Numbered from the stretch's first letter, positions 36,267 to 55,275 are shown. The stretch: 64,000 nt of DNA from Escherichia coli (GCF_016903815.1 NZ_CP069972.1); one strand, 5' to 3'. Program-made: numbers and translations. The notes: generated by a model not told the origin, from the sequence alone.

Positions 36267-37118
36267 TCAGACTCGTGGCGGCAATGCACCAGGATAATGC
36301 CGTGCAATAATATCATTCAGTTTTTCAACAAGGTCAGAACGCTTAAAGACAATGTGTACGGTCCCTTTCTGGTAGCCACGCACCGTAAAATATTCCCCTT
36401 CTAACAGCTTACCGACATTGTCACCGTTCCCGAGAAATTCACCATACTGCGCCCCGATGCTGTTCCTGAAGTCAGGAACGTTGCGCCCCTCCAGCAGATA
36501 AAACGGACGTACCAGGTCATCCAGTGCCTCCCGTCCGCTGCAGTCCAGCGTCACACGCCCGTTACTCCAGCGGTACAGTAGGTTTTCAATAATTATTTTC
36601 TTACCCAGACGGCAGGGATTATTGGTTCTGTAATCCCATGACAATTTCCGGTAGACATCAATCAGCCCCTGTTCAAACGTCTGCATCTTGCTGGCATTAA
36701 GATGGCGGAATGTTGCCAGTACATTGTCCAGGGTGATTTCAGGACAGGTGTCGCTCATCAGCTGGCTGTTCCACTCATCACGCTGGCATGAACTCATGAA
36801 GGTGTACATGCCCGTATCTGTCATCAGGCGGTCCCAGATTTTCCGGTCGGCAAGACGGGTGATATTCCTTTTCGCTTCTTCCGTCTTATCCATGCGACGA
36901 ACGGAATCAGTCACGCAGTCTTCAAACCCGTAAAGAAAAATATCACCTGACGCATCGAGCAGAATCTTGCGCGCTGTCGCCAGGCATTCCATCGCCTGCA
37001 TGAACAGTGCAATACCTTCGTTACGCTGCGCGATGATGCGGTCGATAGCTACAGACGGAATAACATCTGTCGTGCCGGCAGTATTCAGGTCAGCAGTGGG
37101 TAAAGTCTGATTCATCAC
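36267..37118 (-). CDS. Leading-region protein of unknown function (283 aa)
   Basis: Long ORF directly downstream (on - strand) of repeat A1; no motif recognised. Confidence 0.55.
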   Translation of the reverse strand: MMNQTLPTADLNTAGTTDVIPSVAIDRIIAQRNEGIALFMQAMECLATARKILLDASGDIFLYGFEDCVTDSVRRMDKTEEAKRNITRLADRKIWDRLMTDTGMYTFMSSCQRDEWNSQLMSDTCPEITLDNVLATFRHLNASKMQTFEQGLIDVYRKLSWDYRTNNPCRLGKKIIIENLLYRWSNGRVTLDCSGREALDDLVRPFYLLEGRNVPDFRNSIGAQYGEFLGNGDNVGKLLEGEYFTVRGYQKGTVHIVFKRSDLVEKLNDIIARHYPGALPPRV

Positions 37119-37159
37119 ATTGTCTCCTCATCGTCACGACTGCCGGGTCAGCCAGGTCA

Positions 37160-37495
37160 TTTCCCGGAGGAGCGAAGCTCCTTCTGCCGTCCGGGTCTTC
37201 GGGGATTTCCCCGCAGTGGACCTTTCCGACGGGGGACGCTCACCACGTCACGGGGCAGTTGTCCGGGGGCAGACGCAAAAGTTTTTGACGCCTGCGGCAA
37301 AAAGTTTTGTGGCTGGTACATCTCTCCCCTGGACGACTGAAACGGGATGTGGTCATGTATGTACCCCCGGAAAGTCCGTCTGCGGAGAACAGGCCGCAGT
37401 GCGGCGGCAGACAGGCAGAGACAGCTGCGCCATCAGGCGCAGTGGCCTTACACACCGTAAGGTGTGCAGGGAGCGCCGCATACGGCGCGACTGAA
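37160..37495 (-). repeat. Family-A GC-rich structured repeat, copy 1 (Frpo/ssi-like single-strand promoter candidate)
   Basis: ~335 bp highly similar to 40553-41055 and 46898-47400; many internal inverted repeats. Confidence 0.6.
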
Positions 37496-37592
37496 GAAAA
37501 ACGACGGCACAACAATGGCATGTGGTGGTCACTGGCACACCACTCCCGCACAGGTGAAAACAGAGAAAACCGCACGACATTTACAACCAAAA

Positions 37593-37680
37593 AAAGTGAA
37601 ATTTCTTCACTTTTTCACGCTTATTTTTCGCGTTGATTTGGTGATTATGATGATAAAATAAAGTGAAATTTTTTCACTTT
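37593..37680 (+). promoter_or_regulatory. Two AAAGTGAAA/TTTCACTTT palindromic operator-like sites bracketing a promoter-like TTGATT..TAAAAT
   Basis: Inverted repeat 37593-37616 and perfect 21-bp palindrome 37659-37679, directly upstream of HTH gene. Confidence 0.45.
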
Positions 37681-37694
37681 TTCAAAGGTGTTTT

Positions 37695-37946
37695 ATGACC
37701 GGCTGGGAACTGCGAATCTGGCGAAAAAGCATGCTCTGGTCACGCGAAAAAGCGGCCAGAGAATTTGGCGTGACGCAGAGAACATGGCACGCCTGGGAAA
37801 ATGCGGAACAGGTGGACGTCACCGTCTGGAGGACCACCCAGGCACTTTCAGTCCGTGACCTGCTGCCTCACATGCAGGGGATGCGTAAGGCAGATATCAT
37901 CAGGCGACTGGAAAATGAACTGGGGGAAACGGCAGGGAATGTGTGA
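37695..37946 (+). CDS. Small HTH DNA-binding protein (83 aa)
   Basis: HTH-like WSREKAAREFGVTQRTWHAWE; preceded by palindromic operators. Confidence 0.5.
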   Translation: MTGWELRIWRKSMLWSREKAAREFGVTQRTWHAWENAEQVDVTVWRTTQALSVRDLLPHMQGMRKADIIRRLENELGETAGNV

Positions 37947-37976
37947 GCGTGATTCACAGCCTGGCTGAATGCCAGG

Positions 37977-38159
37977 CTACTGCTCATCAGGAAACAGCTT
38001 TTTCAGTTCTTCACCGGAAAGTCCCGTGACCTCCTGAATCCGTTCCAGCGGCCAGCCTATATCCCGAAGCCGGCAGGCTATTTCCCGCGCCACTTCAAGA
38101 GCCCCTTGTTTAAAACCCTCGTCGAAACCTTTCTGTATAAGACGTTCTGCAATCGTCAT
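37977..38159 (-). CDS. Free-standing Rpn tail-domain ORF (RpnS-like, 60 aa)
   Basis: MTIAERLIQKG...TGLSGEELKKLFPDEQ parallels the C-terminal tail of the adjacent Rpn protein; lies after the rpn terminator; SD weak and distant. Confidence 0.45.
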   Translation of the reverse strand: MTIAERLIQKGFDEGFKQGALEVAREIACRLRDIGWPLERIQEVTGLSGEELKKLFPDEQ

Positions 38160-38181
38160 GCTGTTTGCTCTGCTCCTGCTG

Positions 38182-38208
38182 ACAAAAAAGCCCGGCATTT
38201 TGCCGGGC
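38182..38208 (-). terminator. Rho-independent terminator after rpn
   Basis: GCCCGGCA-loop-TGCCGGGC; on - strand followed by T6. Confidence 0.55.
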
Positions 38209-38221
38209 TTTGTGGTTCTCA

Positions 38222-39148
38222 TCAGTGAGTGATTTTCTTCAGTTCGTCATCGGAAAGTCCGGTAGCCTGCTTAATCTGCTCCGGCGTCATCCCCATTTTC
38301 TGAAGCTGGCACGCAATAGCCAGGGCTTTTTCAAGCGCTCCTTCCATGCGTCCTTCCATGCGTCCTTCCATCCTGCCTTCCTGGCGACCTTTTTGCTCAA
38401 GACGTTCTGCGATAGTCATCAGTTTATCCTCATGCTGCGGCAGACGCTCAGCCAGCGCCCGCATAAATTCCGGTGATACAGAGTCCCCTGCGTTAACGAT
38501 GTAATGAATCAGAACACGCACCTGCTCGTCTGAAATTTCCACCATGACCTGCGGGAGTTTGTCCAGCAGCTCCATCATGTCACGATGGCGGATATGCTTC
38601 ATCAGCAGCGTCAGTGCGGCCATCCGGCGATGGTTCATGATTTCATTGTCATCAACGACAGTGATATCAACCAGCGGAAACGGCTTTGTGTATATTTTAG
38701 CCGCAAGTGCCGGATTCTCAAAACAGTCCAGCCAGTTCATGCTGTACGGGTACGGGCTGCGCTCACCGTGATAGAACAGCACCGGAATCACCAGTGGCAA
38801 CGTTTTGTGCTGCTCCAGATGTCTCTGCATCGCCGCCACACTGTAGCGTAACATGCGAAAAGGCATGTACAGATTTTCTGTGCTCTGGTGCTCGATGAGC
38901 GTATAAACATAACCATCTTCACCCCCGGTGGTTTTCACGCTCCAGAGGATATCGCTGGCGTACTGATGCAGGTCCGGCTCAACAAAGGTGGCGGGTTCCA
39001 GCTTCAGCGTGGACAGGTCGCACAACTGCCGGTACTCCGCAGGAAGATGCAGTTCCAGAAAATCCCTGGCAACGTCGGGATTCGCCAGGAACGACCGGAA
39101 CGCGGCATCATGCGGCGTGGGCGTTGTGGTGTTTTTCTTCTTACTCAC
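38222..39148 (-). CDS. Rpn-family (YhgA-like) recombination-promoting nuclease (308 aa, GTG start)
   Basis: GGAGG before GTG; N-terminal domain with ...YVYTLIEHQSTEN... motif; C-terminal tail with (EGRM)3 repeat; internal in-frame ATG 38419 with GAGGA SD. Confidence 0.75.
   Translation of the reverse strand: MSKKKNTTTPTPHDAAFRSFLANPDVARDFLELHLPAEYRQLCDLSTLKLEPATFVEPDLHQYASDILWSVKTTGGEDGYVYTLIEHQSTENLYMPFRMLRYSVAAMQRHLEQHKTLPLVIPVLFYHGERSPYPYSMNWLDCFENPALAAKIYTKPFPLVDITVVDDNEIMNHRRMAALTLLMKHIRHRDMMELLDKLPQVMVEISDEQVRVLIHYIVNAGDSVSPEFMRALAERLPQHEDKLMTIAERLEQKGRQEGRMEGRMEGRMEGALEKALAIACQLQKMGMTPEQIKQATGLSDDELKKITH
38340..38387 (-). repeat. Tandem 12-bp coding repeat (CCTTCCATGCGT x3-4) encoding EGRMEGRMEGRMEG
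   Basis: Direct tandem copies inside the rpn tail. Confidence 0.8.
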
Positions 39149-39534
39149 GGTTCCTCCATCAAATCAGCAGCATCGCAGCAATCATCGCCCAAATCCCCAC
39201 AACCGAGAGGACAGCAATTGCGTTCAAAGCCATGACAACAATAGCCGCGTTCTGAGTCACGGCGTATTTCTTCAGCAATCTCTTCTGCGGAAAGGTAATC
39301 AAACTCCTCACGGGCCAGTTCCAGGACCAGTAGATGTTGTTCTGTCGGCAATGTGGCCACAAAATTATCAATAGCAGCACTCAAACGTCGCTGATATAGC
39401 TCATAAACAAGACCACAACGGGGCATTAGTTCTTCGGATAATAGTTCCAGTTTTGAGCGAATTCTGTCAGCGTTGAAAGTGACTTCATCAAAAGACATAT
39501 GAAAAGCTTTGTCAGTATCAAAACAAGACTTCAT
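39145..39534 (-). CDS. Hypothetical protein with Cys-rich C-terminus, translationally coupled to rpn (129 aa)
   Basis: GGAG before ATG 39534; stop overlaps rpn start (4-nt overlap); CCHGFERNCCPLGCGDLGDDCC tail. Confidence 0.4.
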   Translation of the reverse strand: MKSCFDTDKAFHMSFDEVTFNADRIRSKLELLSEELMPRCGLVYELYQRRLSAAIDNFVATLPTEQHLLVLELAREEFDYLSAEEIAEEIRRDSERGYCCHGFERNCCPLGCGDLGDDCCDAADLMEEP

Positions 39535-39710
39535 TGTTATCTCCAGCCCTCCCGGGCCCTGAATGAAAGAGAATCTGTTTCCCTTTTCTGTTTTTTGTGG
39601 AGACACCATGCAACACAGACGTCGTGATGTTTTTCATCTTGCTCACGGTTCCTCCTGGTAAAGTACCTGAACACATCCTGCCACCTGCACAGGCAGACGG
39701 CAGGGGTTAA

Positions 39711-39977: not shown

Positions 39978-40069
39978 GGCATAATCTCCATAGTTAGTGA
40001 ATGAGATGCCGGACTTCCGTACGGGGAAGCGCCAGCGGAGAAAGGCAGGGTTTATCGCCCTGCTTTTTT

Positions 40070-40504
40070 TCATTCCGGACAGCGACGCAGTGCCAGCGCG
40101 AGCGCTTTCATCTTCCAGCCTTCCGGCGTGCGGTACATCACCTTCCAGTAGCCGTCGATGAACACATAATGGAAGCGCACCTCTTCAGTGCTTTCCGTGG
40201 CGATGGCCTCCCTGAAAGAACGGTACTCACGCGCCTCACTGTCCATCCGGAAACCACTGTCACGTCCGTAATAAGCCGTCACACCGTCCACCGGGTTCTG
40301 AAGCGTATGCCCGGCGGGTTTGTCGCAACGGGGACCGAGGCAACGGATATCACCGTGTTCAACCAGGGCTTCGGCCTGCTGACCGGTGGCATAGTGGGTA
40401 TGCAGGATGCGACCGTTCCAGGTCGGCTCACCGTGCAGGTGGCAGTAAACGGTACGGAACACCCCGTCGCGGCAAAAAACGGAAATCGTGCTGCTGACTG
40501 TCAT
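40070..40504 (-). CDS. Hypothetical protein (144 aa)
   Basis: AGGAG before ATG 40504; first gene downstream of repeat A2; His/Cys-containing, no motif recognised. Confidence 0.5.
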   Translation of the reverse strand: MTVSSTISVFCRDGVFRTVYCHLHGEPTWNGRILHTHYATGQQAEALVEHGDIRCLGPRCDKPAGHTLQNPVDGVTAYYGRDSGFRMDSEAREYRSFREAIATESTEEVRFHYVFIDGYWKVMYRTPEGWKMKALALALRRCPE

Positions 40505-40552: not shown

Positions 40553-41055
40553 CCCCCGGAGGGGCGAAAGCCCCTTCTGCCGTCCACTTCTTCGGGGTTT
40601 CTCCCCGCAGTGGACCTTTCCGATGGGGCAGCGACTGCCACGGCACGGGGCAGTTGTCCGGGGGCAGACGCAAAAGTTTTTGACGCTTGCGGCAAAAAGT
40701 TTTGTGGCTGGTACATCTCTCCCCTGGACGGCTGAAACGTGTTGTGGCCGCTTCAGCCCCCGGAAAGTCCACAGCGGGGAAACAGGCCGCAGGGGGGGCG
40801 GCGGAAGGGCAGACAACTGCGCCATCAGGCGCAGTTTCCTTACACACCGTCAGGTGTGCAGGGAGCGCAGGTCACGGCGCGACAGAGGCGGCGCGACCGG
40901 AACGGTCGCTGCAAGCCTGGTTTTTCAGACATCGGACCGTAGCGGCAGCCCGAAACCGCGCCAGCGGGTTCGGCGGAGACTGGCGGGTGCGCCAGCAGCT
41001 GCCTGTCGGAGTCGGGCCTGACGACCGGATGCCGCCAGGCAGCCGGGAGCCGAAG
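40553..41055 (-). repeat. Family-A repeat, copy 2 (Frpo/ssi-like)
   Basis: ~500 bp; near-identical blocks shared with copies 1 and 3. Confidence 0.6.
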
Positions 41056-41236
41056 GGTGTCCCCGCCCCCGGGAGTCAGAACAACAGAAACGACAAAACA
41101 GAAAAATGCCTCACACTATGACAGGCAGGAAGGGTAGCGCCGCAGGCGCGGCCCTCCTGTATTTCAGGCAGGCGTAAGCCTGCCAGGGTTTTCCGGGGGC
41201 CTGGCAGGCCATCCCCCCGCCGGAGCGGGGAGTAAA

Positions 41237-41737
41237 TCACCGACGGAACACATGACCGTCAATAAAGGTGAAGGAGTCCAGGAATAAATCCCGCGCATAC
41301 GCCTCATAGTCAAAATAGAGCGCCACCGTCTCCGGCACGTCAGCCAGCAGGCCGGTATCACTGACGAACTCAACCGCAAAAGCCTCCTCACTGTCAGCCT
41401 CGCCCCACCAGGCATCGCGGAAGCTGTCAAAATCCGTCTCACCGGTATCATCCACCCAGAGACGATAAGCCTCTTCGCAGCCTTCATCCCGCGCCTGGCG
41501 GAAGCCTTCAACCCAGGCCCAGTTGATATGGCATTCAGAGGCCATATTCCCCGGGAATCCCTCATAATCCTGAAACATCAGTTCCGGGTCGGTTTCATCC
41601 TGGTGAAGGGCACGGCAGGCGGCGAAAAAGTCGCGTTCATCATCAAACGTTGTCAGGTCAAACCAGCGGCCAGCGATGCTTCCACAGTTGTATTTGTGCC
41701 AGGTTCCAACGTATACAGCAGGTGCAACAACAGACAT
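41237..41737 (-). CDS. ardA: ArdA antirestriction protein (166 aa)
   Basis: MSVVAPAVYVGTWHKYNCGSIAGRWFDLTTFDDERDFF..., acidic; matches ArdA as I recall it; ATG 41737 internal to track ORF. Confidence 0.9.
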   Translation of the reverse strand: MSVVAPAVYVGTWHKYNCGSIAGRWFDLTTFDDERDFFAACRALHQDETDPELMFQDYEGFPGNMASECHINWAWVEGFRQARDEGCEEAYRLWVDDTGETDFDSFRDAWWGEADSEEAFAVEFVSDTGLLADVPETVALYFDYEAYARDLFLDSFTFIDGHVFRR

Positions 41738-41761
41738 TCCCGAATCCTCCATAGTCACATG

Positions 41762-42095
41762 TTCTGCGACACCGGGCGGTGCCGTGCCTCCATCTTTGCC
41801 GGGCCTGCAGGGATGCAAGGGCGCAAGGGAAGCCGCAGCCCGACGCACACGGCTGGCGGGAGTTGGAGGGTGAGACCGCGAAATCTGAGCGGGTGAACGA
41901 CCGGAAAATCACGGCAGACGGGAAGGAGGGACCGGGTGACCGCAGCGGTTCATCTTACCTTGCATCCCGCCCGCAGAAGCCCGGCTACGATGGAGGCACG
42001 GCACAGCCCGCACACGACACGGCGGCCACATAACTGAAAACCCACAAGGCCATGCCCCGCATGGCCGGGTAAAAGCGGAGCCGGCGGCGACGTCC
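41762..42095 (-). repeat. Family-B GC-rich structured repeat, copy 1 (Frpo/ssi-like), upstream of ardA
   Basis: ~335 bp near-identical to 51055-51387. Confidence 0.55.
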
Positions 42096-42198
42096 TTATT
42101 CCGGCGAGAGCAGGGAGCACACCGCATGATCTCCAGACCACCCCTGGAACGAAACGATCATGACCGGCATGTCCCTGCGTAAAATATACATGCCTGGT

Positions 42199-42795
42199 TC
42201 ACCGGAGAATATCTGTGATATCCACAAGTTTTCTGTCGCGCAGCCAGTCCTGCGCTTCACGCACCACACAACTGTCCGGTTTCACCGCTTTCAGCGATGA
42301 TGCCAGTCGCTTGATCAACATCACCAGTTCCCGTGTCTGTATGTCCGGCATTGTCTCCGGCGGAGCAGGGGGACTCTCATTTCCGACGCTCATCCCATGC
42401 GCTTCCAGTGTGGCACGGACAAACCAGGCGGCATCGACCAGTTGCTGTCCAATCCAGGCCAGATCGGCATTTCTGTCACGGGCTGCCATTCGCTCGCCCG
42501 ACAGCGCCTTGCTGATATGGCTGCGCACCAGATTATCCAGGAGTGCCTGCGCTTCTTCCGGTGAAAAGCCACCTGGTATCTCTGTGCGCAACAGCCCTTT
42601 CCTGTACAGAAGCTGCAGCAGATCAACCTGCGACCGCACAGCAACTATCAGTACATAACGGACAACATTCGCACTGGCAGTGGTTTCTGTATCATTCAGC
42701 AGTTCTTCCGGATCGTTCCCCCCGGTGTTGCAGAGCAACGGCAACAGAGGTCGCATCCACGCGGGAACCTGGTATTTTTCGTCTGATTTCATCAT
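42199..42795 (-). CDS. Hypothetical protein downstream of psiA (~198 aa)
   Basis: Start adjacent to psiA stop (operon-like); no motif recognised. Confidence 0.45.
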   Translation of the reverse strand: MMKSDEKYQVPAWMRPLLPLLCNTGGNDPEELLNDTETTASANVVRYVLIVAVRSQVDLLQLLYRKGLLRTEIPGGFSPEEAQALLDNLVRSHISKALSGERMAARDRNADLAWIGQQLVDAAWFVRATLEAHGMSVGNESPPAPPETMPDIQTRELVMLIKRLASSLKAVKPDSCVVREAQDWLRDRKLVDITDILR

Positions 42796-43996: not shown

Positions 43997-45961
43997 TCAG
44001 GCGGCATCAGCCAGGTTAGCGGTGTGTTCAGTGGCATCCGTCTGTGGACGTGGTGCACACATCCAGCCAGGCACCCAGCGGTTGTCTTTCATATGGAACT
44101 CTGCATGTTCAGCCGCATCGCCTTTCTTCATTTTCTCCGCGTCCCGTGCGGCACCGGACAGTCCGGCCTCATTCAGGGCTGCGATAATCTGCGGCTTTTT
44201 CAGGTGTCCGAAGAAGTTTGCTTTTGTCGGCTGCCACCAGTCGCGCATGTGAAAGCCGATGGCGGTTTCCAGCGAGTCCAGCGGACTGCGTGACGTGTGA
44301 CCACACTCGCGGGTCTGGACACCGTTAAGACTGCACGCGGTACAGAAACTGAGCAGGGATAACAGCACCTCCTGGCTAAGTGACAGGAACGTCGTCATAT
44401 CCCGTTCCCATCCTTCCGGCAGCAGGGCAGCAAAACGAGAGTGTTCTGCCATCAGCGCCATGAATGCGGCACCTTCCTTCCCTGACGGTGCATCGCTGGT
44501 CAGCGCATAATGCTCACATTCCAGGCGAATTCTGGCGGGACTACTATGCGCTTTGCTGTCAAACACATTCAGGCAGAGCGTCCATGCCAGCAGTGCCAGG
44601 GATTTGTCCGGTTGCTGCATCAGTGCTGCCTGGACTGCCAGCGTGCGCTCTGAGGTCAATTTAGTCAGCAACGGCAGACTAATTTCCTCCACTGACGCGC
44701 TCTCCAGCCCCTGTTCCGTGCGGTCAGCGTCGTCAGCCACATCATCCTCACTGCGCAACTGCACACCACGCTGGATACACACATTACCGTAACGCCAGGA
44801 CACCACCACGCCACTTCCGGCACGCATCTCCGGCGTCCACGCCCTGACCTTCGCCATGCAGTCAATCAGCTTCATTTCTGCTGCCAGCAGGTCAGATTCC
44901 TCACACTGGTTTTCCAGCGAGTCGTAACGAGCCATCAGTTCGTTCAGACGTTCGTCTTCCGCCTCCGTCAGCACCGCTTCCGGCTCCGGCAGGTTGCGGT
45001 ATGCCCGGGCATCTTCACGGCACTCACCGACAGGCTCCATGCGTCCGGCGCACCATTCCCAGCCTTCGGCTTCCCGAAGGAACTCTGCGACAGCCTGGAG
45101 TTTTTCCAGCAGGGCGGCATCGAGCGCCACGCGGTCGACATAACCGTCCCCGTCATCGCTGAACAAATCGGTGCGCAGTTCGTCTGGCGAGAAGGCATCA
45201 GCCCCCACGAAGCGGAATTTACTGTTCCCCGCCACCGCCACTTCACTTTCGGTCACCAGACGACGAATGGTCTGTACTTCCGGTTTACCGCCCCATCCCG
45301 ACTGGCAGGCGGCTTCAAACACCTGCACCTGACGCGCGGTGTCGTTCTCCAGCGCCAGCGCCTGACAGTGCTCTGTGGTGATGCGGTCTTCTGCCAGCGC
45401 ATCGAGGATAACCGGAGCAAGGTCTGCCAGTTTCAGCATTCGCTGAACGTGGCGGGGTGAATAGCCCAGCAAATCACCGATTTGTGCAGGCGTTTTGCCT
45501 TCCTGCGCCATTGCGCGGAATCCGGCAATCTGTTCGGCAGGGTGCATATCCCGACGCTGACCGTTCTCGGTCATCGATGCGGCAGTCGCCAGCTCCTGCG
45601 GAATGACCTTCACGCGTACAGGCCAGTCAGCCGGAAGGATGTTGCGCTCTGCCAGCATGTTGAGTGCTGCCAGTCGGCGACCGCCTGCGGCGACAGCGTA
45701 ACGGTCACCAGGCAGGGTATGCACGACCAGATTCTGCAGCAGTCCGACGCCCTTAATGGACTCCGCCAGTTCGCTGACGGACTCCGCAGAATACGGCACC
45801 GTGCGCACATTCAGCGGTGATTTAATCAGCGAGGCCAGCGGCACGCTCACTTCCTCCGTCTGCGCCAGCAGGGCAGACAGGACAGTTTCCTGCGTTTTTA
45901 CAGATTTACGGCTTGCTTTGCGGGTGGTTTCTGGTTCACACTTCGTTACAGGCATAATCAT
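43997..45961 (-). CDS. ParB/Srx-like nuclease-domain protein of leading regions (654 aa)
   Basis: N-terminal ParB-like domain (GLLQNLVVH...AGGRRLAA); long acidic C-terminal region; between psiB and ssb. Confidence 0.75.
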   Translation of the reverse strand: MIMPVTKCEPETTRKASRKSVKTQETVLSALLAQTEEVSVPLASLIKSPLNVRTVPYSAESVSELAESIKGVGLLQNLVVHTLPGDRYAVAAGGRRLAALNMLAERNILPADWPVRVKVIPQELATAASMTENGQRRDMHPAEQIAGFRAMAQEGKTPAQIGDLLGYSPRHVQRMLKLADLAPVILDALAEDRITTEHCQALALENDTARQVQVFEAACQSGWGGKPEVQTIRRLVTESEVAVAGNSKFRFVGADAFSPDELRTDLFSDDGDGYVDRVALDAALLEKLQAVAEFLREAEGWEWCAGRMEPVGECREDARAYRNLPEPEAVLTEAEDERLNELMARYDSLENQCEESDLLAAEMKLIDCMAKVRAWTPEMRAGSGVVVSWRYGNVCIQRGVQLRSEDDVADDADRTEQGLESASVEEISLPLLTKLTSERTLAVQAALMQQPDKSLALLAWTLCLNVFDSKAHSSPARIRLECEHYALTSDAPSGKEGAAFMALMAEHSRFAALLPEGWERDMTTFLSLSQEVLLSLLSFCTACSLNGVQTRECGHTSRSPLDSLETAIGFHMRDWWQPTKANFFGHLKKPQIIAALNEAGLSGAARDAEKMKKGDAAEHAEFHMKDNRWVPGWMCAPRPQTDATEHTANLADAA

Positions 45962-46304: not shown

Positions 46305-46832
46305 TCAGAACGGGATGTCGTCTGAAAACCCGTAATCCTCCCCCTCCGGCGGTTGCGGCTGAGGCTCTGGCTGCGCGGCCTTACGTCCACGGCCTTTCGT
46401 TTTCGCGCCACCTTTTTTCGTCGCGTCAGCACTCTGTGGCTGCCCATTCTGCTGAGGCTTCGGTTGCGCCTGAGCGTTCTGCTGTGGTGCACGTCCCAGC
46501 ATCTGCACGGTGCCCGTGGTCTTAACAAGAATTTCAGTGACGTAACGGGTGATACCGTTATCTTCCCAGCTACGGGTGCGAAGCTGACCTTCGATGTAGA
46601 CCTGCGCACCCTTGCGCAGATATTCACCTGCCACTTCCGCGAGCTTGCCGAACAGCACCACGCGGTGCCATTCCGTCTGCTCCCGCATCTCCCCCGTCTG
46701 TTTGTCACGCCAGCTTTCTGATGTGGCCACCTGCAGGTTTGCCACTGCGCCCCCGTTGGGGATGTAACGGACTTCCGGATCATTGCCCAGACGCCCGACG
46801 AGGATGACCTTGTTGATACCACGTGCACTCAT
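46305..46832 (-). CDS. ssb: Plasmid single-stranded DNA-binding protein (175 aa)
   Basis: OB-fold N-terminus [18 protein letters not shown]; Q/P-rich linker; acidic C-terminal DDIPF tail. Confidence 0.9.
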
Positions 46833-46897: not shown

Positions 46898-47400
46898 TTC
46901 AGAGGAGCGAAAGCTCCTCCTGCCGTCCACTTCACAGGGGTTTCTCCCCGCAGTGGACCTTTCCGATGGGGGCCCGTTTACCGCCTCACGGGGCAGCTGT
47001 CCGGGGGCGGACGCAAAATTTTTTGCCGGGTTCATGGCTAAAAATTTTGTGGCCGGTGCATCTCACCCTGGACAGATGGAACGGGAGGGGGTTACGTCTG
47101 CCCCCCGGAAAGTCCACAGCGGGGAAACAGGCCGCAGGGGGGGCGGCAGGAGGGAGGACTGCTGCGCCATCAGGCGCAGTTTCCTCACACACCGTCAGGT
47201 GTGCAGGGAGCGCAGGTCACGGCGCGACAGGGGCGGCGCGACCGGAACGGTCGCTGCAAGCCCGGGTTTTCACGCATCGGACCGTAGCGGCAGCCCGAAA
47301 CCGCGCCAGCGGGTTCGGCGGAGACTGGCGGGTGCGCCAGCAGCTGCCCGTCGGAGTCGGGCCTGACGACCGGATGCCGCCAGGCAGCCGGGAGCCGAAG
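46898..47400 (-). repeat. Family-A repeat, copy 3 (Frpo/ssi-like), upstream of ssb
   Basis: ~500 bp near-identical to copy 2; right edge is where the intron begins. Confidence 0.6.
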
Positions 47401-47406
47401 TGGGCG

Positions 47407-49747
47407 GTGCGACAGGAAGTCGCTTAACGTATTGTTTTACATTGATAAAACCAGCTATCCCATTAGCTGTAGCCTACCGGGACAGGCGTTGCCGGCAACG
47501 GCGGGGTCTGAAGCTCCCGGGACAACGAGAGCCGGGCGTCAGCCCGGGTAATGCCCCGTGAGGGGCTTTACCTTGCTGCAAGCATCATGCGGCAGGAGAG
47601 CAAGGCTGGTCAGAAGGGTTAACACATGTGAACTGTTGATAAACACCGTTATCGGCAACAGGCCAAAGATGCTGACAGGCCTGAACCAAAAGGTACGGGG
47701 TCCGGTTGCTACCTCGCGCACAGGGAGCACATGGGCGCAGAGACCCCCGGTGAAGAGACAGAACCCGCCCTGACCCTCTGTATGTTAAGCGGAACCTGGT
47801 AAACCCGTATCGCTGCCTCACAGGCAGGTGAACCGCAAGGAACACTGTTAGCGGTGCGGGCATAGGAGGACGGAAAAAGCGAATGCCCGGCTGTAATAAC
47901 CGGGATACGGGGCAGGTTCCCCGACGCGAAAGCGGGCAGACTTCCGTCTGGTCTTTAATTGCATGAAAAGCTGTAAAGCAGTCAAAAGGATATCAGCGAG
48001 ATGAATACACACATCAGTGTGTCCACGATACCCCACCCGACAGGCTGGCACACCATAAACTGGAAAGCATGCCATGCCCGGGTGCGAAAGCTACAGTTAC
48101 GGATTGCAAAGGCAACCCGACAGCAACAATGGCGGCAGGTCAGAGAACTACAGCGCATCCTCACCCGCTCATTCTCCGGCAAAGCCGTGGCTGTCAGGCG
48201 TGTAACTGAAAATACCGGTAAAAGGACACCCGGTATTGACGGAAAAATATGGCACACACCGAAGGAGAAATGGGAAGGAATATGCAGCCTGAATCTGTGT
48301 GGTTACAGGCCACAGCCACTACGGCGAATACATATCCCAAAATCAAACGGCAAAACGCGACCGCTGGGCATACCCACAATGAGGGACCGGGCCATGCAGG
48401 CACTGTGGCTGCTGGCTCTGGAACCCGTATCCGAGACCACTGCTGACCATAACAGCTATGGTTTCAGACCAATGCGCAGCACGCATGACGCCATTGAGTC
48501 CATTTTTCTGCGGATGAGCCAGAAAGTATCGCCCAAATGGATACTGGAGGGCGATATTAAAGGGTGCTTCGATAACATCAGCCATGACTGGCTGCTTTCC
48601 CATATTCCGATGGACAGGAGACTGCTTAAAAAATGGTTGAAAGCAGGTTACATGGAAAGAGGCGTGTTTAACCATACGAACAGCGGGACACCGCAGGGAG
48701 GCATCATATCCCCTGTTCTCGCCAACATGGCTCTGGACGGACTGGAGAAGGAACTGATGCAAACGTTCAGGAAAAGTGGTTATCACAGTGCAAAGCACCA
48801 GGTGAATTATGTGAGATATGCTGATGATTTCATCTGTTCAGGCAGCTCCCGTGAATTGCTGGAAAATGAGGTCAGACCACTGATTGCAGCTTTCATGCGC
48901 GAACGAGGGCTGGAACTGTCGGAAGAAAAAACAGCGATCACACATATAGATAAAGGCTTCGACTTTTTAGGGCAGAACGTCAGGAAGTACAACGGTAAAA
49001 TGCTGATTAAACCGTCGAAGAAAAACCTGAAGAACTTCCTCTGTAAAGTCAGAGAAATAATTAAACGCAATCCGACGCTCCCGGCATGGAAACTGATAGG
49101 CCAGCTAAACCCGGTGATCCGGGGATGGGCTACCTATCACCGACACGTCGTGGCGAAAGAAACATTTAATTATGTCGACACCCAAATCTGGCGAGCTATA
49201 TGGCGATGGTGTGTAAGACGGCATCCCCGGAAAGGATTGCGGTGGATCGCCGGACGATACTTCTCCTTTGAAGGCAGGCGCTGGATCTTTAAAGCCATAA
49301 CCCCGGAAGGGAAAATTCTGACACTCTTCCGGGCAATGGAAACACCGATAAAGCGCCATATAAAAATCAAAGGCGAAGCAACACCATACACCCCCGGAAT
49401 GGAAATCTACTTTGAACGTCGTCTGGATCTAATCTGGAAAGGCAAATCAAAGAAGATGAAGACAGTAGTTCAACTCTGGAAGAGGCAGGGGAAACACTGT
49501 CCGCAGTGCGGACAACTCATAACCAACCAGACCGGATGGAATATACATCACCGGATCAGGAAAGTTATGGGCGGCAGTGACGAACTGACCAATCTCGAGT
49601 TGTTACATCCGAACTGCCACCGACAGTTACACAGCAGGGAAGCCGGTGCTCACCGAAAGCACTTATAAAGGCTTGAGCGGAGTGCGGGGAAACTCGCACG
49701 CTCCGTTCTTAGGGGGCGGCGGCGCAGCAATGTGCCGCTGCTACCCG
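47407..49747 (+). mobile_element. Group II intron (boundaries approximate)
   Basis: 5' GTGCG at 47407; ORF in domain IV; domain V-like 34-nt hairpin 49675-49708; domain VI-like stem to ~49747. Confidence 0.8.
48001..49668 (+). CDS. Group II intron-encoded reverse transcriptase/maturase with HNH endonuclease (555 aa)
   Basis: RT motifs incl. YADD; maturase X region; C-terminal HNH (HCPQCG...HHRIRKVMGG...HPNCHRQLH). Confidence 0.9.
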   Translation: MNTHISVSTIPHPTGWHTINWKACHARVRKLQLRIAKATRQQQWRQVRELQRILTRSFSGKAVAVRRVTENTGKRTPGIDGKIWHTPKEKWEGICSLNLCGYRPQPLRRIHIPKSNGKTRPLGIPTMRDRAMQALWLLALEPVSETTADHNSYGFRPMRSTHDAIESIFLRMSQKVSPKWILEGDIKGCFDNISHDWLLSHIPMDRRLLKKWLKAGYMERGVFNHTNSGTPQGGIISPVLANMALDGLEKELMQTFRKSGYHSAKHQVNYVRYADDFICSGSSRELLENEVRPLIAAFMRERGLELSEEKTAITHIDKGFDFLGQNVRKYNGKMLIKPSKKNLKNFLCKVREIIKRNPTLPAWKLIGQLNPVIRGWATYHRHVVAKETFNYVDTQIWRAIWRWCVRRHPRKGLRWIAGRYFSFEGRRWIFKAITPEGKILTLFRAMETPIKRHIKIKGEATPYTPGMEIYFERRLDLIWKGKSKKMKTVVQLWKRQGKHCPQCGQLITNQTGWNIHHRIRKVMGGSDELTNLELLHPNCHRQLHSREAGAHRKHL

Positions 49748-49946
49748 ACCAATAAAAGACAGCCAGAAACGGTGACAGTGTCACGGAATATCACACCTGT
49801 TCCCTGCATACAGCCATACACTACCTTCTGACCGGAAAGCCGGGCCGGCAGCGCCGCAGGCGCTGCACCCCGCGTTTCCGGCAGGCGTCAGCCTGCCAGG
49901 GGTTTTCGCGCGGGCTGACAGGCGGCCTCCACCGCCTGCCCCTGTA

Positions 49947-50603: not shown

Positions 50604-51029
50604 TCAGTCAAGTGCCGCGTAAATCGCGTTGCATTCGGGGTGAAATTCGATGTGGCTCCACAACTGCGCATCACGCATCCTGTACAGGTGTGTCAACCCT
50701 GCATCCCCGCTGTCGTGGTACAGCCACAACTGGCGGTTAATCACAAGGGAGGTAAGGATGATGCCTGCGGCATCAGCGCTCACGGTACGGTCAAACCAGT
50801 TTGCACCGTTCACCATGTGGAAACGGTCGCCATCCGGCATCATGTAACCGCCACCGTCCGGCAGGCGGATGAAGTGCCAGAATCCGCCTTCATATTCCGG
50901 CATCATTTTTTTCGCCAGCGCGTATACAGACGCTTCGGCATACAGAAAATCCAGGCCAAACAGGTAAGGCAGAAAAGACAGACGGTCGCACTCTTCAACG
51001 TTCAGAGTGACAGGTTTCGCATATTGCAT
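50604..51029 (-). CDS. klcA: KlcA/ArdB-family antirestriction protein (141 aa)
   Basis: Conserved blocks [44 protein letters not shown] as in KlcA/ArdB. Confidence 0.75.
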
Positions 51030-51054
51030 GATGTTTTCCTCCGTTGTTCACATA

Positions 51055-51387
51055 TTCCGCGACACCGGGCGGTGCCGTGCCTCCATCTTTGCCGGGCCTG
51101 CAGGGTTGCAAGGGCGCAAGGGAAGCCGCAGCCTGACGCGCACGGCTGACGGGAGTTGAAGGGTGAGACCGCGAAATCTGAGCGGGTGAACGACCGGAAA
51201 ATCACGGCAGACGGGAAGGAGGGACCGGGTGACCGCAGCGGTTCACCTTACCTTGCAACCCGCCCGCAGAAGCCCGGCTACGATGGAGGCACGGCACAGC
51301 CCGCACACGGCGCTGAGGCCACATAACTGAAAACCCACAAGGCCATGCCCCGCATGGCCGGGTAAAGCGGAGCCTGCGGCGACATCC
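51055..51387 (-). repeat. Family-B repeat, copy 2 (Frpo/ssi-like), upstream of klcA-like gene
   Basis: Near-identical to 41762-42095. Confidence 0.55.
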
Positions 51388-51444
51388 TTTTGCTCTTTCC
51401 GGGGACCGGCTGGAAAAGGCGGAGATTTTTCCCCGCCAGCGTCA

Positions 51445-52215
51445 TCATTTCCGGATTTTCGCCAGTGCATCCGCCATGCTGCGGATTTCAGTCCGGGCTT
51501 CCAGGACCACCTCCCGCAGAATATCCCGGTCAAACCAGCGACGGGACGGTTCATCCGGTATACGCAGCACATCGCAGGCCAGCCCACTGGACAGGATATG
51601 CTCCACACACTCACTGACCAGATACATTTCCACCGACGAAAAACGAGCGCCCCGGTTCAGGATGGCATCGAGCACCACGGGCAGGTTTTCGTCGTCTTCA
51701 TCGAGCCAGCAGGGGTGATCGCTTTCCTTCACAACCAGGCGAAAGCGGCGCGTCTGGCGGGTCAGCAACGTCTGACCGGTTGTGGTCAGCGCCGCCCTGA
51801 TACGCCGCGCATCTTCTGCCACCCGGCAACTGACACTGCGTACCGCATCGTGCACCGCATCAAGAACTGCCCTGATTTCGTCTTCGGTCAGCCATTCTCC
51901 GGCATACGGGAAAGACACCTGCGTTCCGTCTGCCGGAAGTACCGGCAGCGACTGCCACTGACTGCCGGACAGAACAAGTTCCGCCCCGGTTCCGGTCAGT
52001 TTCTGAATGGCAGAGGCCAGGAGCGGCGGCAGTACGCCGCCGTGACGGTTGATAAGTAACGTCGCCAGCCGGGGCGCATCCAGCAGAACATAAATGCTGA
52101 TCCAGCCCGGATACTTCGGGTTACGCTGGTCAACATCCGTCTCTTCCGGCCAGCCCTGCGCCAGCAGCAGGTTACGGGCGTGGCGACAAATCAGTGCATT
52201 CAGCGTTTCGTTCAT
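51445..52215 (-). CDS. Hypothetical leading-region protein (256 aa)
   Basis: Long ORF, no motif recognised. Confidence 0.5.
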
Positions 52216-52259
52216 GATTCATGGTCTCCCTGAATCGCCGCCCGCAGGCGGCGATAACA

Positions 52260-52694
52260 TCAGTCGTTTTCGCGTGTGTTGTTTTTCAGCAGGGCGCGGG
52301 CCTGATTAACCACCGCCTGTCGGCGGGTGACGCATTCCGGGACGGCGAGGCCGTTATCACGGGCGGCCCACTCACGTTTCCACAGTGCCTGTTCGGCGGT
52401 CTGAATCAGGGACGCCAGCAGTTCAGCAGGGACGGTCACCTGGCGGTTTTCTCTCACGTTATTGATGATCTCCATCGCCGCACCGGAAGAAATACCGGAT
52501 TCAGTCCGCTGGTCTTCCGGGATGTCCTCCAGGCGCGCCAGGACAGTCCTGATTTCATGATCGGACAGGGAAATATCCATTCCGTCAGCGAGGGCCTGAA
52601 TTTCTTCCGGGGACCAGATAACCAGCATCAGCGGCGTATCTCCCGGATACTTTGCTGCCAGCGCCCGGCAGAGCGTTTCGCATGTTCCGTACAT
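52260..52694 (-). CDS. Hypothetical leading-region protein (144 aa), paralogue of 50135..50557
   Basis: See paralogue. Confidence 0.5.
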   Translation of the reverse strand: MYGTCETLCRALAAKYPGDTPLMLVIWSPEEIQALADGMDISLSDHEIRTVLARLEDIPEDQRTESGISSGAAMEIINNVRENRQVTVPAELLASLIQTAEQALWKREWAARDNGLAVPECVTRRQAVVNQARALLKNNTREND

Positions 52695-52707
52695 TCTCGT
52701 CTCCTTC

Positions 52708-52929
52708 TCAATCTTTGAAGCAGGAATCCAGTTCCAGAATTTCGGTATACGCTTCCATGAACAGGCGATTGGCGCGATACAGCGTCTGGCGTGTCAGGCG
52801 TTCAACAAGCACATCGGAATCAAAGCGACAGCGATGCTCCATATCGTTCAGCCTGGCCCGAAGGTCACACATGGTGTTGGCCACCTCCGCCACGTCGGCG
52901 CGAAGTTTTTCGTGTCCGGCATAGTTCAT
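52708..52929 (-). CDS. Hypothetical small protein (73 aa)
   Basis: Stop abuts MTase start (52930); operon-like. Confidence 0.4.
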   Translation of the reverse strand: MNYAGHEKLRADVAEVANTMCDLRARLNDMEHRCRFDSDVLVERLTRQTLYRANRLFMEAYTEILELDSCFKD

Positions 52930-53613
52930 TTACGCAGCCTCCGGTTCAAACCAGTTATCATTCGCGGCCCCCTGCTGCATGGCCCGTTGCACGGCGGTCA
53001 GTCGTTGCTGTCCGGCACGGTGATACTGTTCAAGCAGCTCGATACCGATATACCGGCGTCCGGACTGAAGAGCGGCCACGCAGGTTGATCCGCTGCCTGC
53101 AAACGGGTCCAGCACAATCGCGTTCGGATGTGTGAAGCTCTCAATCAGTGGTTGCAGGCTGGTAACGGGCTTTTCCGTCGGGTGATGGCGATTGCCCGAA
53201 TATTTCCAGCCCAGCACGTCCGGCAGCGGGTTTTGTGGCAGACGTGGACGGCCTTTTGCCAGGATGTAGGCACATTCGTGGCGATAGCCCACATATGCGG
53301 CCTTCGATGTGTAGTTTTTGGTGAAGACCAGGTGACCAACAACGCTGAATCCCGCATTTTTCCAGGCAGACATAAAACGATCGACGCGATTCCAGCCATA
53401 GAAGCTCACCATTAACGCGTCTTTTTTGAGTACGCGGTACATCTCATTACAGGCCGGTTGCAGCCATTCATCGGTTTTATCGCCGGCAATGGTACGCCCC
53501 TGACGGTCACGAAAACCGACGAGGTACGGCGGGTCGGTGAGGATGAAATCAATGGCGTTATCAGGGATACGGGCCATAACATCGATGCAGTTACCGAGGA
53601 CAAAACGGGACAT
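52930..53613 (-). CDS. Orphan DNA methyltransferase, N6-adenine/N4-cytosine type (227 aa)
   Basis: Motif IV ILTDPPY near N-terminus; motif I-like DPFAGSGST near C-terminus; no restriction gene adjacent. Confidence 0.85.
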   Translation of the reverse strand: MSRFVLGNCIDVMARIPDNAIDFILTDPPYLVGFRDRQGRTIAGDKTDEWLQPACNEMYRVLKKDALMVSFYGWNRVDRFMSAWKNAGFSVVGHLVFTKNYTSKAAYVGYRHECAYILAKGRPRLPQNPLPDVLGWKYSGNRHHPTEKPVTSLQPLIESFTHPNAIVLDPFAGSGSTCVAALQSGRRYIGIELLEQYHRAGQQRLTAVQRAMQQGAANDNWFEPEAA

Positions 53614-53996
53614 ACCAAACTCCTTCTCTTACAGAGGGCACCGGGAGGGCACCCCTGTGGTGCCCGTTCCCCGCTGCCTGTGGGCTGTTCACCGCGTCCG
53701 GTAACGGGTCAGGCCGACCGTGGAATACCGCAGCCGTCGTCTTTTTGACGGCAAGGCTATGCCGCGAAAGCGGCTTGAAGGGCGTTCATCAGAAAAGGGC
53801 GACGGGCTGGCGTACACTGTCACCGACGCCAGCCGGGAGCGGTAAAAGCGCCCGTCCCGTGCCCGGCCGGACGCGGACACTGACCACAGGCAGCGTTTAT
53901 GCCGCGCCGCGTCAGCCGGCGCAGTAAAAAGAGGAGCACGGCGACATCCTTTACCGGAAAAGAAACGGGCGGTTGCCCGCCCGTCTCCGTCATACT

Positions 53997-54923
53997 TCAT
54001 CCGCCATAATGCGCCACATTGTCGATTATCCACGCAGGTCCGGTGACTTCCGGCAGCTCATCATCATCTGTCGGGGAAGACCATTCCAGTTCCCCCCACA
54101 GCACATCAACGAGCTCTCCGCGCTCATACAACTGCCAGCCACAGAAATTGCAGCCCTGTTCGGCGTACCAGTGCTCCAGCGTGCAGCCGAAACGGCGGCT
54201 TAATTCTGCAACAACGTCGCTTTCCGGCTGACACCACGGCGTGTCGAAATCTACCTGAATGAAGTTTTCCCCCTGACTGCTGATATTCAGGTCATACCCA
54301 CAAGGCCACTTCACGCCATACCGTTCTGTATACCAGTGATATGCAGAAGGAACACCGTTCAGAACACCGCCGTTAAAGCCATTCACTTCAATATCCAGGC
54401 GGGTCGGCAAAACCGTCAGCAGGTCAAACGGCATGGTTTTTTCCGGCAGTACGTTGTCACACAGACGGTTCCACCACACCGATACATCCTCGTTACCCCA
54501 GATGTCACACCAGTCACCTCTTTTTGCGGTGAAATGCACAGTGATAGTTTCCCTGACATCATCCGGTAACTCTTCCCAGCGACGCTGTCCAGTACCGCTC
54601 TGCAGCCAGAGTTCATGCAGCATCAGGCAGTTTTGCTCATCCAGCAGTACACCGTTCTGCAGGTGTGTCAGCCAGCGGGTGAACGCGATATTTTCCGGTG
54701 ATACAGCACCACGTCCGGCAGCCGTCACTCCGGGGCACTGCTCAGAGCGGATATTTTCAGTGATCTGCAGAAGTCCGGCACTTCCGGCCAGAAACAGCTG
54801 AATACCTTCATTTGTGGCGCGGCGATAAAGCGGTGTAACTGCACCGCTGGCCAGTCGTTTAATCTCAGCGATCTGTGCCGGTTCACCAGAAAAATACATA
54901 CGATTCGAGCACCAGTTTGGCAT
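53997..54923 (-). CDS. Hypothetical leading-region protein (308 aa)
   Basis: GAGGAG before ATG 54923 (inside track ORF); W/C-rich; no motif recognised. Confidence 0.5.
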   Translation of the reverse strand: MPNWCSNRMYFSGEPAQIAEIKRLASGAVTPLYRRATNEGIQLFLAGSAGLLQITENIRSEQCPGVTAAGRGAVSPENIAFTRWLTHLQNGVLLDEQNCLMLHELWLQSGTGQRRWEELPDDVRETITVHFTAKRGDWCDIWGNEDVSVWWNRLCDNVLPEKTMPFDLLTVLPTRLDIEVNGFNGGVLNGVPSAYHWYTERYGVKWPCGYDLNISSQGENFIQVDFDTPWCQPESDVVAELSRRFGCTLEHWYAEQGCNFCGWQLYERGELVDVLWGELEWSSPTDDDELPEVTGPAWIIDNVAHYGG

Positions 54924-55275
54924 GGGAATTCTCCTCTCACATGCGGCCTCCATCAGGCCGTGCCGCACCTGTTACCGGGCGACCGCATACGAATGCAGGT
55001 GCGGCCCCGAAGCCGCAGCGCGTGGAGGAGGAACGACGAAACGTGACCGGGTGAGGAGGCCGGCGACAGCGACACACTTGCATCGGATGCAGCCCGGTTA
55101 ACGTGCCGGCACGGCCTGGGTAACCAGGTATTTTGTCCACAGAACCGTGCACAAAATGCTGTGGATAAGCTGGACACAGCAGCCCACAGCAGGCATACAG
55201 CCACACACTCAGAGAATTGAGCGTTTTTTAGTCACAACAATGACATTTGACTGTGTGCGGATTCAGTTATTAGAA

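Follow-up and report, generated by a model that had tools for sequence, protein, structure and literature searches.

The window (the whole 64,000-nt stretch of Escherichia coli DNA that was analysed) contains an IncI1 oriT with nikA and nikB directly to its left. The consensus for the nick site of IncP and IncI1 is YATCCTG/Y (here and below, the slash marks the nick) and, in this case, the context is TTGCACATCCTG/TCCCG, hence the nick is predicted between 35704 and 35705 on the plus strand, 8 nt past the inverted repeat 35659-35696. With a nick at this position, the plus strand would be transferred 5′ to 3′ toward higher coordinates. The first-pass annotation had predicted this same nick and had reasoned in the same way about the transferred strand, and the nick context agrees with it on both points.

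To the right of oriT there are six GC-rich elements in one shared orientation (A1-A3 of family A, B1 and B2 of family B, and a unique structured element, C), each placed a short distance upstream of a minus-strand operon, from which it is separated by a short leader with a ribosome-binding site. The operons encode, among others, SSB, PsiB, PsiA, a ParB-like protein and a DNA methyltransferase, whose identities were checked, together with ArdA (PF07275) and an ArdB/KlcA-type protein (PF03230, Antirestrict). The family A copies, in plus orientation, are 1.5-11.7 kb from nic, with minus-strand genes to the left of each. The minus-strand genes left of each element are as annotated at first; the claim that every gene to the left is on that strand needs a minor correction, the region also having plus-strand genes (35840-36181, 37464-37661, 37695-37946 and ltrA). 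No consensus double-stranded DNA promoter was found upstream of any of the minus-strand operons. Coordinates, motifs and putative target genes are collected in Table 1.

Table 1. Features of the leading region (positions counted from the first letter of the window; promoter assignments and target genes are predictions)
Feature	Position	Strand	Basis	Main stem	Motifs and parts	Putatively driven genes (minus strand)	Identity to known elements
oriT core	35659-35705	+	38-nt inverted repeat 35659-35696, then CACATCCTG/T				
A1, predicted class 1 ssDNA promoter, ColIb-P9 ssi1/"Frpo1" equivalent	37163-37494	+	identity, fold	~37216-37380	apical A/T tract and TTGTGG 37299-37312; unpaired bulge GGTACATCTCT 37315-37325; CCCTGGAC 37327-37334	DUF4942 gene 36267-37115	99.1% pESBL-EA11; 99.1% ColIb-P9 ssi1/Frpo1 (AJ238399:1459-1787)
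A2, predicted class 1 ssDNA promoter, ssi2 position	40555-41209	+	identity, fold	40610-40772	core 40555-40886; TTGTGG 40702-40707; bulge 40710-40720; upstream extension (~325 nt) 40887-41209	operon 40070-40504 to Rpn 38222-39148, other genes unknowns	91.8% pESBL-EA11 over 655 nt; only 87% ColIb-P9 Frpo2
B1, predicted class 2 ssDNA promoter	41745-42097	+	motifs, fold, identity	41773-42010	-35 TTGCAT 41960-41965; -10 TACGAT 41986-41991; minus-strand terminator-like hairpin 42061-42043	ardA 41237-41737	88.9% pESBL-EA11; 89.2% F
A3, predicted class 1 ssDNA promoter, ColIb-P9 ssi3 equivalent	46902-47406	+	identity, fold	46953-47117	core 46902-47231; TTGTGG 47047-47052; bulge 47055-47065; left part of extension 47232-47406	ssb 46305-46832, DUF905, ParB-like gene 43997-45961, psiB, psiA, 42199-42795	99.0% pESBL-EA11; 98.5% ColIb-P9 Frpo3
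Group II intron	47407-49749	+	RF02012 121.8 bits; RF00029 60.1 bits; TIGR04416 385 bits		GTGCGAC...CCCGAC; ltrA 48001-49668		
A3 extension, right part, moved away by the intron	49750-49930	+	identity				98.9% pESBL-EA11, where it adjoins the left part
B2, predicted class 2 ssDNA promoter	51037-51389	+	motifs, identity		-35 TTGCAA 51253-51258; -10 TACGAT 51279-51284; minus-strand terminator-like hairpin 51354-51336	ArdB/KlcA-type antirestriction gene 50604-51029	89.4% pESBL-EA11
C, predicted class 3 ssDNA promoter	53625-53996	+	identity, fold	53672-53895, enclosing two sub-hairpins	candidate -10 GACACT 53876-53881 (partly unpaired) and TACACT 53813-53818	M.EcoGIX-type methyltransferase 52930-53613	98.4% pESBL-EA11; 96.3% F

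Repeat families and the group II intron

Repeats were located by self-BLAST of the region 35000-57000 and by repeat finding. The self-BLAST matches of family A (E-values from 1e-74 to 0) covered A1, A2 up to 41055 and A3 up to 47400; A2 and A3 are 88.8% identical over 500 nt, and A1 is 85.2% identical to A2 and 80.7% to A3 over about 332 nt. A2 is built as a mosaic, with some segments like A1 and others like A3. The two copies of family B are 94.6% identical over 354 nt. Every copy is a direct repeat, and the GC content of the repeats is 63-67% versus about 52-58% in their surroundings. The inventory of three, two and one in the first-pass annotation was confirmed, with its coordinates within about 20 nt of ours, and the repeats are GC-rich as it described, though not extremely so.

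The length of 335-500 bp that it gave for family A is too short for the unit shared by A2 and A3, which is really about 655 nt long, and the intron had been overlooked; both are minor points. A 78-nt match joins 41133-41209 to 49847-49923, and A3 resumes beyond a group II intron which sits inside its extension, just upstream of the 46902-47406 part, and whose exact junction is given by the empty site of pESBL-EA11. The intron interrupts the A3 repeat and is outside the promoter system; being beside A3, it could alter the expression of the ssb-psiB operon.

The GC-rich extension itself (about 325 nt; 40887-41209 in A2, 47232-47406 plus 49750-49930 in A3) might be a functional module in its own right on the transferred strand, so far undescribed, that works in termination, as a roadblock or in priming. 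It might also be where a group II intron naturally homes, with insertion in the sense of that strand. We give this idea a low probability. The first ~40 nt of the extension recur beside both Frpo copies of F, and published Salmonella Frpo* sequences contain a short hairpin motif that belongs to its beginning.

Folding, motifs and covariation

We folded the plus strand of the elements as single-stranded DNA. The z-scores were -8.6 for A1, -11.5 for A2 with its extension, -4.4 for B1 and -6.2 for C (53620-54000), and no shuffled sequence folded as well as any of these four. In a sliding scan of 330-nt windows between 35.8 and 55 kb (background mean -56.5, sd 14.6), all the windows below -85 kcal/mol were within A1, A2, B1, A3, C or their immediate flanks; no window on B2 reached this value, and B2 folded alone gave -92.9. 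The plus strand is more stable than the minus strand by 17-19 kcal/mol in class 1 (18.7 in A1), which has 6-7 G.T pairs on the plus strand versus 1-2 on the minus strand, and by 5-7 kcal/mol in class 2. No such strand asymmetry in folding energy was found for class 3 (-107.9 versus -107.4 kcal/mol).

The stems have compensatory changes at 22 of the 79 predicted pairs in class 2 (7 sequences) and at 11 of 33 in class 1 (11 sequences, with the G.T pairs conserved). Covariation was examined in these two classes; the class 3 homologues are all near-identical.

The first-pass annotation had proposed to look for -35 and -10 mimics in the folded plus strand, and they are present in class 2, in which TTGCAT and TACGAT are on the 3′ (non-template) arm of B1, the first in perfect duplex and the second mismatched at -12 and -10. 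Across the 7 class 2 sequences the 3′ arm reads GCCCGGC-TA(A/C)(G/A)(A/G)T, with T-12, A-11 and T-7 invariant and the paired 5′ arm variable. Transcription would start near 41785 from B1 and near 51078 from B2. Both copies are, however, only about 89% identical to the tested ones of pESBL, from which their promoter spacer differs.

Classes 1 and 3 also fold into a large stem-loop, and in them the -10 could not be placed. The 3′ arm of class 1 has an A/T tract and a -35-like TTGTGG beside a conserved 10-nt bulge, and a PWM scan of this class gave no convincing -10 element (the best matches were weak and their positions differed among homologues). For C, no -35 was found to match either of the two candidate -10 motifs. 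The methyltransferase downstream of C matches PRK13699 and is identical to M.EcoGIX at 213 of 227 positions.

Interpretation of the six elements

We consider the six elements to be, very probably, the single-stranded DNA promoters (ssi/Frpo, also called "ssp", of classes 1, 2 and 3) that belong to a leading region of IncI1 type. Our basis is their identity with published elements, the strand-specific folding, the compensatory changes, the class 2 motifs and the finding that the repeats are non-coding; single-strand-specific transcription, start sites and induction are taken from the literature on orthologues. The first-pass annotation had read the repeats as elements of Frpo/ssi type which, once folded in the entering plus strand, act as promoters of minus-strand anti-defence and SOS-inhibition genes. 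Orthology with ColIb-P9 and pESBL and the published function support this reading, and the three groups that it distinguished (A, B and an unrepeated stretch) correspond exactly to the published classes 1, 2 and 3. Since the elements are the published hairpin promoters, it was right, and there is nothing new in them: they are ordinary for this plasmid group.

In the proposed mechanism, NikB would nick oriT and the plus strand would enter the recipient with its 5′ end first, after which each element on the entering strand would fold into a long imperfect hairpin. The hairpin would rebuild a sigma-70-type promoter with the -35 in duplex and the -10 partly mismatched and hence pre-melted. The host RNA polymerase could then initiate on the still single-stranded template and transcribe leftward into the adjoining minus-strand operon (Table 1). 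Synthesis of the complementary strand would iron out the hairpins and turn the promoters off, so that anti-restriction, SOS-inhibition and ssDNA-binding functions would be expressed in a transient burst.

It is possible, though in our judgement unlikely, that the elements chiefly act on the synthesis of the complementary strand in the recipient, which they would prime (ssi) or obstruct by their structure, with expression as a secondary effect. This type of element was originally isolated as an ssi signal, and in vitro the transcripts from Frpo can prime DNA synthesis; the class 2 element of F, ssp2, is also a replication roadblock, its hairpin stalling conversion until UvrD resolves it (bioRxiv 10.64898/2026.01.09.698686), and the hairpins described here are highly stable (from -93 to -109 kcal/mol). 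The promoter role is, however, compatible with these observations, both functions having been shown by the same papers. Moreover, every element is placed exactly upstream of an operon, leader and ribosome-binding site included, and the invariant TA...T on one arm of class 2 suits a promoter and not a mere obstacle.

Far less probable is that the elements are ordinary repeated intergenic DNA (REP- or MITE-like sequences, scars left by recombination, or the terminators of operons lying upstream) and lack any role specific to the single strand. The terminator-like hairpins of B1 and B2 have a T run, and the mosaic structure of A2 points to recombination between copies, as this explanation would have it. 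Against it, the orientation is fixed relative to oriT, each element is conserved in at least 5000 plasmids, experiments have been published on orthologues at 88-99% identity, and neither strand-asymmetric folding energy nor conserved G.T pairs would be expected to be kept in a double-stranded element.

As improbable is that the long ORFs found in the repeats are genuine genes for small proteins, for which one could cite the "hypothetical protein" that PGAP places, in most plasmids, where the class 3 match falls and those annotated at 58467-58838 and 54394-54705 of pESBL (over element C and the A3 extension in related plasmids): substitutions between copies are spread evenly over the three codon phases (18/15/19, 5/5/7 and 12/12/13), the indels measure 1, 2 or 4 nt, the products are Arg/Gly/Ala-rich as GC-rich non-coding DNA predicts, and the intron splits the pESBL ORF in the present plasmid and in many others. 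The inter-copy differences thus have no codon pattern, hence these ORFs are artefacts, as had been annotated.

Comparison with known plasmids

The closest system is the IncI1 plasmid pESBL-EA11, which is colinear over a 21-kb region at 94-96% identity and whose six orthologous elements (88-99% identity) are ordered as here and precede the same six operons. Class 1 of pESBL is of the ssi1-3/Frpo type, class 2 is 5′ of ardA and klcA and class 3 is 5′ of M.EcoGIX; the six operons were induced up to about 500-fold in recipients 15 min after transfer, and the start sites of all six were mapped by 5′-RACE (Wen et al., NAR 2025, PMC12672017). The present plasmid differs in three respects: it has the group II intron in the extension upstream of the ssi3-type copy, absent from pESBL-EA11; in the class 2 spacer it is the 3′ arm, not the 5′ arm, that holds the extra bases; and the copy at the ssi2 position mixes ssi1-like and ssi3-like sequence.

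With ssi1-ssi3 of ColIb-P9 (Bates et al. 1999; Nasim et al. 2004), compared through the ssi/Frpo sequences listed by Samuel & Burstein, class 1 shares the 328-nt unit and the position in the leading region; classes 2 and 3 were unrecognised in that early work.

The F plasmid (Frpo1/Frpo2, i.e. ssp1, with ssp2 and ssp3; Masai & Arai 1997; Couturier et al. 2023; bioRxiv 10.64898/2026.01.09.698686) has a homologous central hairpin, GTCCGGGGG, an A/T-rich tip and CCCCTGGAC, and shares the gene contexts ssb-psiB, klcA/ardB homologue and methylase. Its class 2 and class 3 elements are 89% and 96% identical to those described here and upstream of homologous genes, whereas both its class 1 copies are only 70-80% identical, over the central 80-140 nt only. 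F has one class 2 copy and the present plasmid two, and TTGAGA-17-CATACT, on the 5′ arm of the F-type copies, is absent from the IncI-type ones. Early expression in F requires Frpo1 and Frpo2 (PMC9849209), and transcription from the Frpo of F has been published to start on single-stranded and not on double-stranded DNA. For class 2, single-strand-specific transcription and roadblock activity have likewise been published in pESBL and F. For anti-defence, it matters that genes are carried by the transferred strand within the leading region (PMC11541004).

Finally, the single-strand origins (sso) of rolling-circle plasmids and further hairpin promoters, compared here by literature alone, are likewise folded single-stranded DNA recognised by the host RNA polymerase (review PMC7690428). 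No sequence similarity was found between the sso and the elements described here; the sso prime DNA synthesis only, whereas these elements would also drive mRNA of the operons downstream.

Organisation of the leading region

The plasmid is of the IncI1 type, and the region studied is its leading region. The region's top plasmid match, pDETEC47, which is typed as IncI1/B/O, MOBP and MPF_I, aligned at 97.7% across all 19 kb. The oriT core (GGCAATTGTATAAT...ATTATACAATTGC-ACATCCTG/TCCCG, the slash marking the nick) lies to the right of nikB and nikA, with the nick predicted on the + strand at 35704/35705, 8 nt past the inverted repeat. A nick at this position means that the + strand would enter the recipient 5' end first and, being the transferred strand, would template the - strand genes to the right of oriT. 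The gene identities checked were those of SSB, PsiB, PsiA, a PRK13699 DNA methyltransferase (213/227 residues identical to M.EcoGIX), a ParB-like protein, ArdA (PF07275) and an ArdB/KlcA-type protein (PF03230). The + strand genes in the region are 35840-36181, 37464-37661, an HTH gene (37695-37946) and ltrA. Just upstream of the HTH regulator gene there is a pair of near-identical palindromic sites, AAAGTGAAAT(N5-6)TTCACTTTTTCA, at 37589-37617 and 37656-37684, which are probably its operators. Outside the region studied, two RNAs scored above the Rfam gathering score, the sok antitoxin RNA (26178-26335, - strand, 134 bits) and the AgrB antisense RNA (25466-25553, + strand, 55 bits).

Self-comparison of 35-57 kb recovered the two repeat families, A and B, that the first-pass annotation had described, with all copies direct. 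A2 and A3 are 88.8% identical across 500 nt, A1 is 85% identical to A2 and 81% to A3 (~332 nt each), and B1 and B2 are 94.6% identical. The GC content of the elements is 63-67% vs 52-58% in the surroundings. A2 is a mosaic, being 95% identical to A1 at 40638-40747 and 96% identical to A3 at 40757-41055, and only 87% identical to Frpo2 of ColIb-P9; its composition suggests gene conversion between the dispersed family A copies.

Features of the leading region and identity of the elements to their orthologues in the IncI1 plasmid pESBL-EA11
Feature	Position	Strand	Description	Identity to orthologue (%)
nikB	32571-35270		left of oriT, with nikA	
A1	37163-37494		direct copy, family A	99.1
A2	40555-41055		direct copy, family A	91.8
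B1	41745-42097		direct copy, family B	88.9
A3	46902-47400		direct copy, family A	99.0
Group II intron	47407-49749	+	GTGCGAC...CCCGAC; Rfam RF02012 121.8 bits, RF00029 60.1 bits	
ltrA	48001-49668	+	within the intron; TIGR04416	
B2	51037-51389		direct copy, family B	89.4
C	53625-53996		unique element	98.4

The ORFs called inside the repeats had been regarded as artefacts, and the codon-phase test, which took in the A and B copies, agrees with this. Precisely, substitutions between copies are spread evenly over the three codon phases (18/15/19, 5/5/7 and 12/12/13) and indels are of 1, 2 or 4 nt, hence real coding ORFs within these repeats are ruled out. Over the class 3 hairpin (element C), PGAP places a "hypothetical protein" (53689-54033, - strand) in most related plasmids, with thousands of them at homologous positions; here a structured non-coding element has probably been mis-annotated systematically.

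Folding of the transferred strand and promoter-like motifs

Folded as single-stranded DNA, the + strand is strongly structured in A1, A2, B1 and C (z-scores of -8.6, -11.5, -4.4 and -6.2, respectively). In the sliding scan, all windows below -85 kcal/mol fell in A1, A2, B1, A3, C or their flanks; B2 had no scan window below this value and reached -92.9 kcal/mol when folded alone. Compared with its complement, the + strand of class 1 (family A) is the more stable by 17-19 kcal/mol and contains 6-7 G.T pairs vs 1-2; for class 2 (family B) the margin is 5-7 kcal/mol, and class 3 showed no strand difference in folding energy. Since G.T pairs turn into C.A mismatches on the other strand, this asymmetry argues for selection on the transferred strand. 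Among divergent copies taken from F, Serratia, Salmonella and the metagenome of an insect gut (Samuel & Burstein supplement), several G.T pairs are conserved and compensatory changes occur in 11 of the 33 consensus pairs of class 1 and 22 of the 79 pairs of class 2.

The expectation that the folded + strand would carry -35 and -10 mimics held for class 2, with TTGCAT and TACGAT, but classes 1 and 3 gave no convincing -10. In B1 the main stem spans 41773-42010, and its 3' arm carries TTGCAT (41960-41965) in perfect duplex and, nearer the stem base, TACGAT (41986-41991), which is mismatched at -12 and -10. The 3' arm would run from loop to base along the direction of transcription, with the 5' arm as template; this geometry would put the B1 start site near 41785, ~48 nt before the ardA ATG. 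In an alignment of seven class 2 sequences, the block GCCCGGC-TA..(A/G)T has invariant T-12, A-11 and T-7 and the opposite arm is variable, as would be expected, judging from sequence, of a non-template -10 element. The duplex form of the same region (TTGCAT-15-AAAGAT) would be a poor promoter, and no consensus dsDNA promoter was found upstream of any of the operons. The class 2 spacer measures 20 nt on the 3' arm and 15 nt on the 5' arm in the window, whereas the values in pESBL-EA11 are 15 and 19 nt, respectively; the spacer bulge has switched sides between the plasmids, with the mean length still ~17 nt. The upstream parts of B1 and B2 also contain a - strand terminator-like hairpin followed by a T run (42043-42061 and 51336-51354), so class 2 elements may also end the preceding operon.

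The conserved class 1 core comprises GTCCGGGGG within the 5' arm, an A/T-rich tip, AAAAA(G/T)TTTTG(T/C)GG within the 3' arm, an unpaired conserved 10-nt bulge (GGTACATCTCT) and CCCCTGGAC. TTGTGG together with the A/T tract resembles a -35 accompanied by an UP element. Among the homologues there was no -10 with A-11 and T-7 conserved at a usable distance from TTGTGG, and matches in a PWM scan were weak and inconsistent in position. Three candidates, i.e. TTGTGG-N16-19-TGGAC(N) on the 3' arm, the bulge (T/C)AT(C/T)T as a pre-melted -10 and the AAA/GGG internal loop, were rejected as A-11 and T-7 are not jointly conserved across homologues. A 5'-arm promoter was rejected in the same way, not being conserved: F-type copies have TTGAGA-17-CATACT (Frpo1 of F; strong, 9.6 bits) or TTGAGA-17-CATCAC (Frpo2 of F), whereas no comparable motif is present on this arm of the window's IncI-type copies. 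Which arm serves as non-template may therefore differ between homologous hairpins. In class 3 the only -10-like motifs are GACACT (53876-53881, partly unpaired) and TACACT (53813-53818), neither with a matching -35; TTGACG and TTGAAG were discarded as -35 elements for want of a -10 at usable spacing.

The intron and the extension of A2 and A3

Upstream of their ~330-nt promoter cores, A2 and A3 share a hairpin-rich extension of ~325 nt with 67% GC (40887-41209, and 47232-47406 plus 49750-49930). A further 78-nt match between 41133-41209 and 49847-49923 indicates that the true A2/A3 unit is of ~655 nt and is split in A3 by an insertion, the group II intron. The intron junction (GAGCCGAAGTGGGCG/CAATAAAAGAC) lies upstream of the A3 core at a distance of 175 nt, and the intron sense strand is the transferred one, antisense to all the adjoining operons. 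A de novo junction at the same position arose in an evolution experiment, and the site is reported to take insertions recurrently (Benz & Hall, PMC10104558). The first ~40 nt of the extension recur beside each of the two Frpo copies of F, and a short hairpin motif with which the extension begins, GCGACCGGAACGGTCGC, can be made out by eye in Salmonella Frpo* sequences from the literature. In pESBL-EA11, PGAP annotates a 123-aa hypothetical ORF over the extension.

Correspondence with published single-stranded promoters

The hairpin promoters set the timing of the first minutes of plasmid establishment and control operons for anti-restriction (ArdA, ArdB/KlcA, M.EcoGIX), SOS inhibition (PsiB/PsiA) and SSB, through which they would influence the success of IncI and IncF resistance plasmids in invading new hosts. 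In pESBL-EA11, six operons, each behind a large hairpin, are induced up to ~500-fold 15 min after transfer, and 5'-RACE start sites are given for all six elements (Wen et al., PMC12672017). The same work defines class 1 as ssi1-3/Frpo, class 2 as the elements 5' of ardA and klcA, and class 3 as that 5' of M.EcoGIX. In a 2026 preprint the classes are renamed ssp1-3 and complementary-strand synthesis is stalled by ssp2 until UvrD acts.

Families A and B and the third element of the first-pass annotation match classes 1, 2 and 3 one-to-one, and its reading of them as single-strand promoters is supported. A reading of the sequence alone had recovered all three published classes, two of them described only in late 2025. 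Plasmid BLAST with B and C gave at least 5000 matches for each element, with 88-100% identity among those listed. A1 is 99.1% identical to Frpo1 of ColIb-P9 and A3 98.5% to its Frpo3 (Samuel & Burstein reference sequences). The F plasmid (NC_002483) has two class 1 copies (at ~15.6-15.9 kb and ~10.2-10.5 kb, 70-80% identical across the central hairpin), one class 2 copy (89%) and one class 3 copy (96%), and the F copies of all three classes are upstream of homologous genes.

For the window, the value of these results is confirmatory, without new biology: the promoter system, both newer classes included, is already known from orthologues 88-99% identical. Positions 35001-56000 are colinear with pESBL-EA11 (NC_018659) at 94-96% identity. 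The intron accounts for the sole large difference, and pESBL-EA11 keeps its empty insertion site intact. What is left as local variation is this intron by ssi3, the mosaic copy at the ssi2 position, a class 2 spacer with its bulge on the other arm, and the extension shared by A2 and A3.
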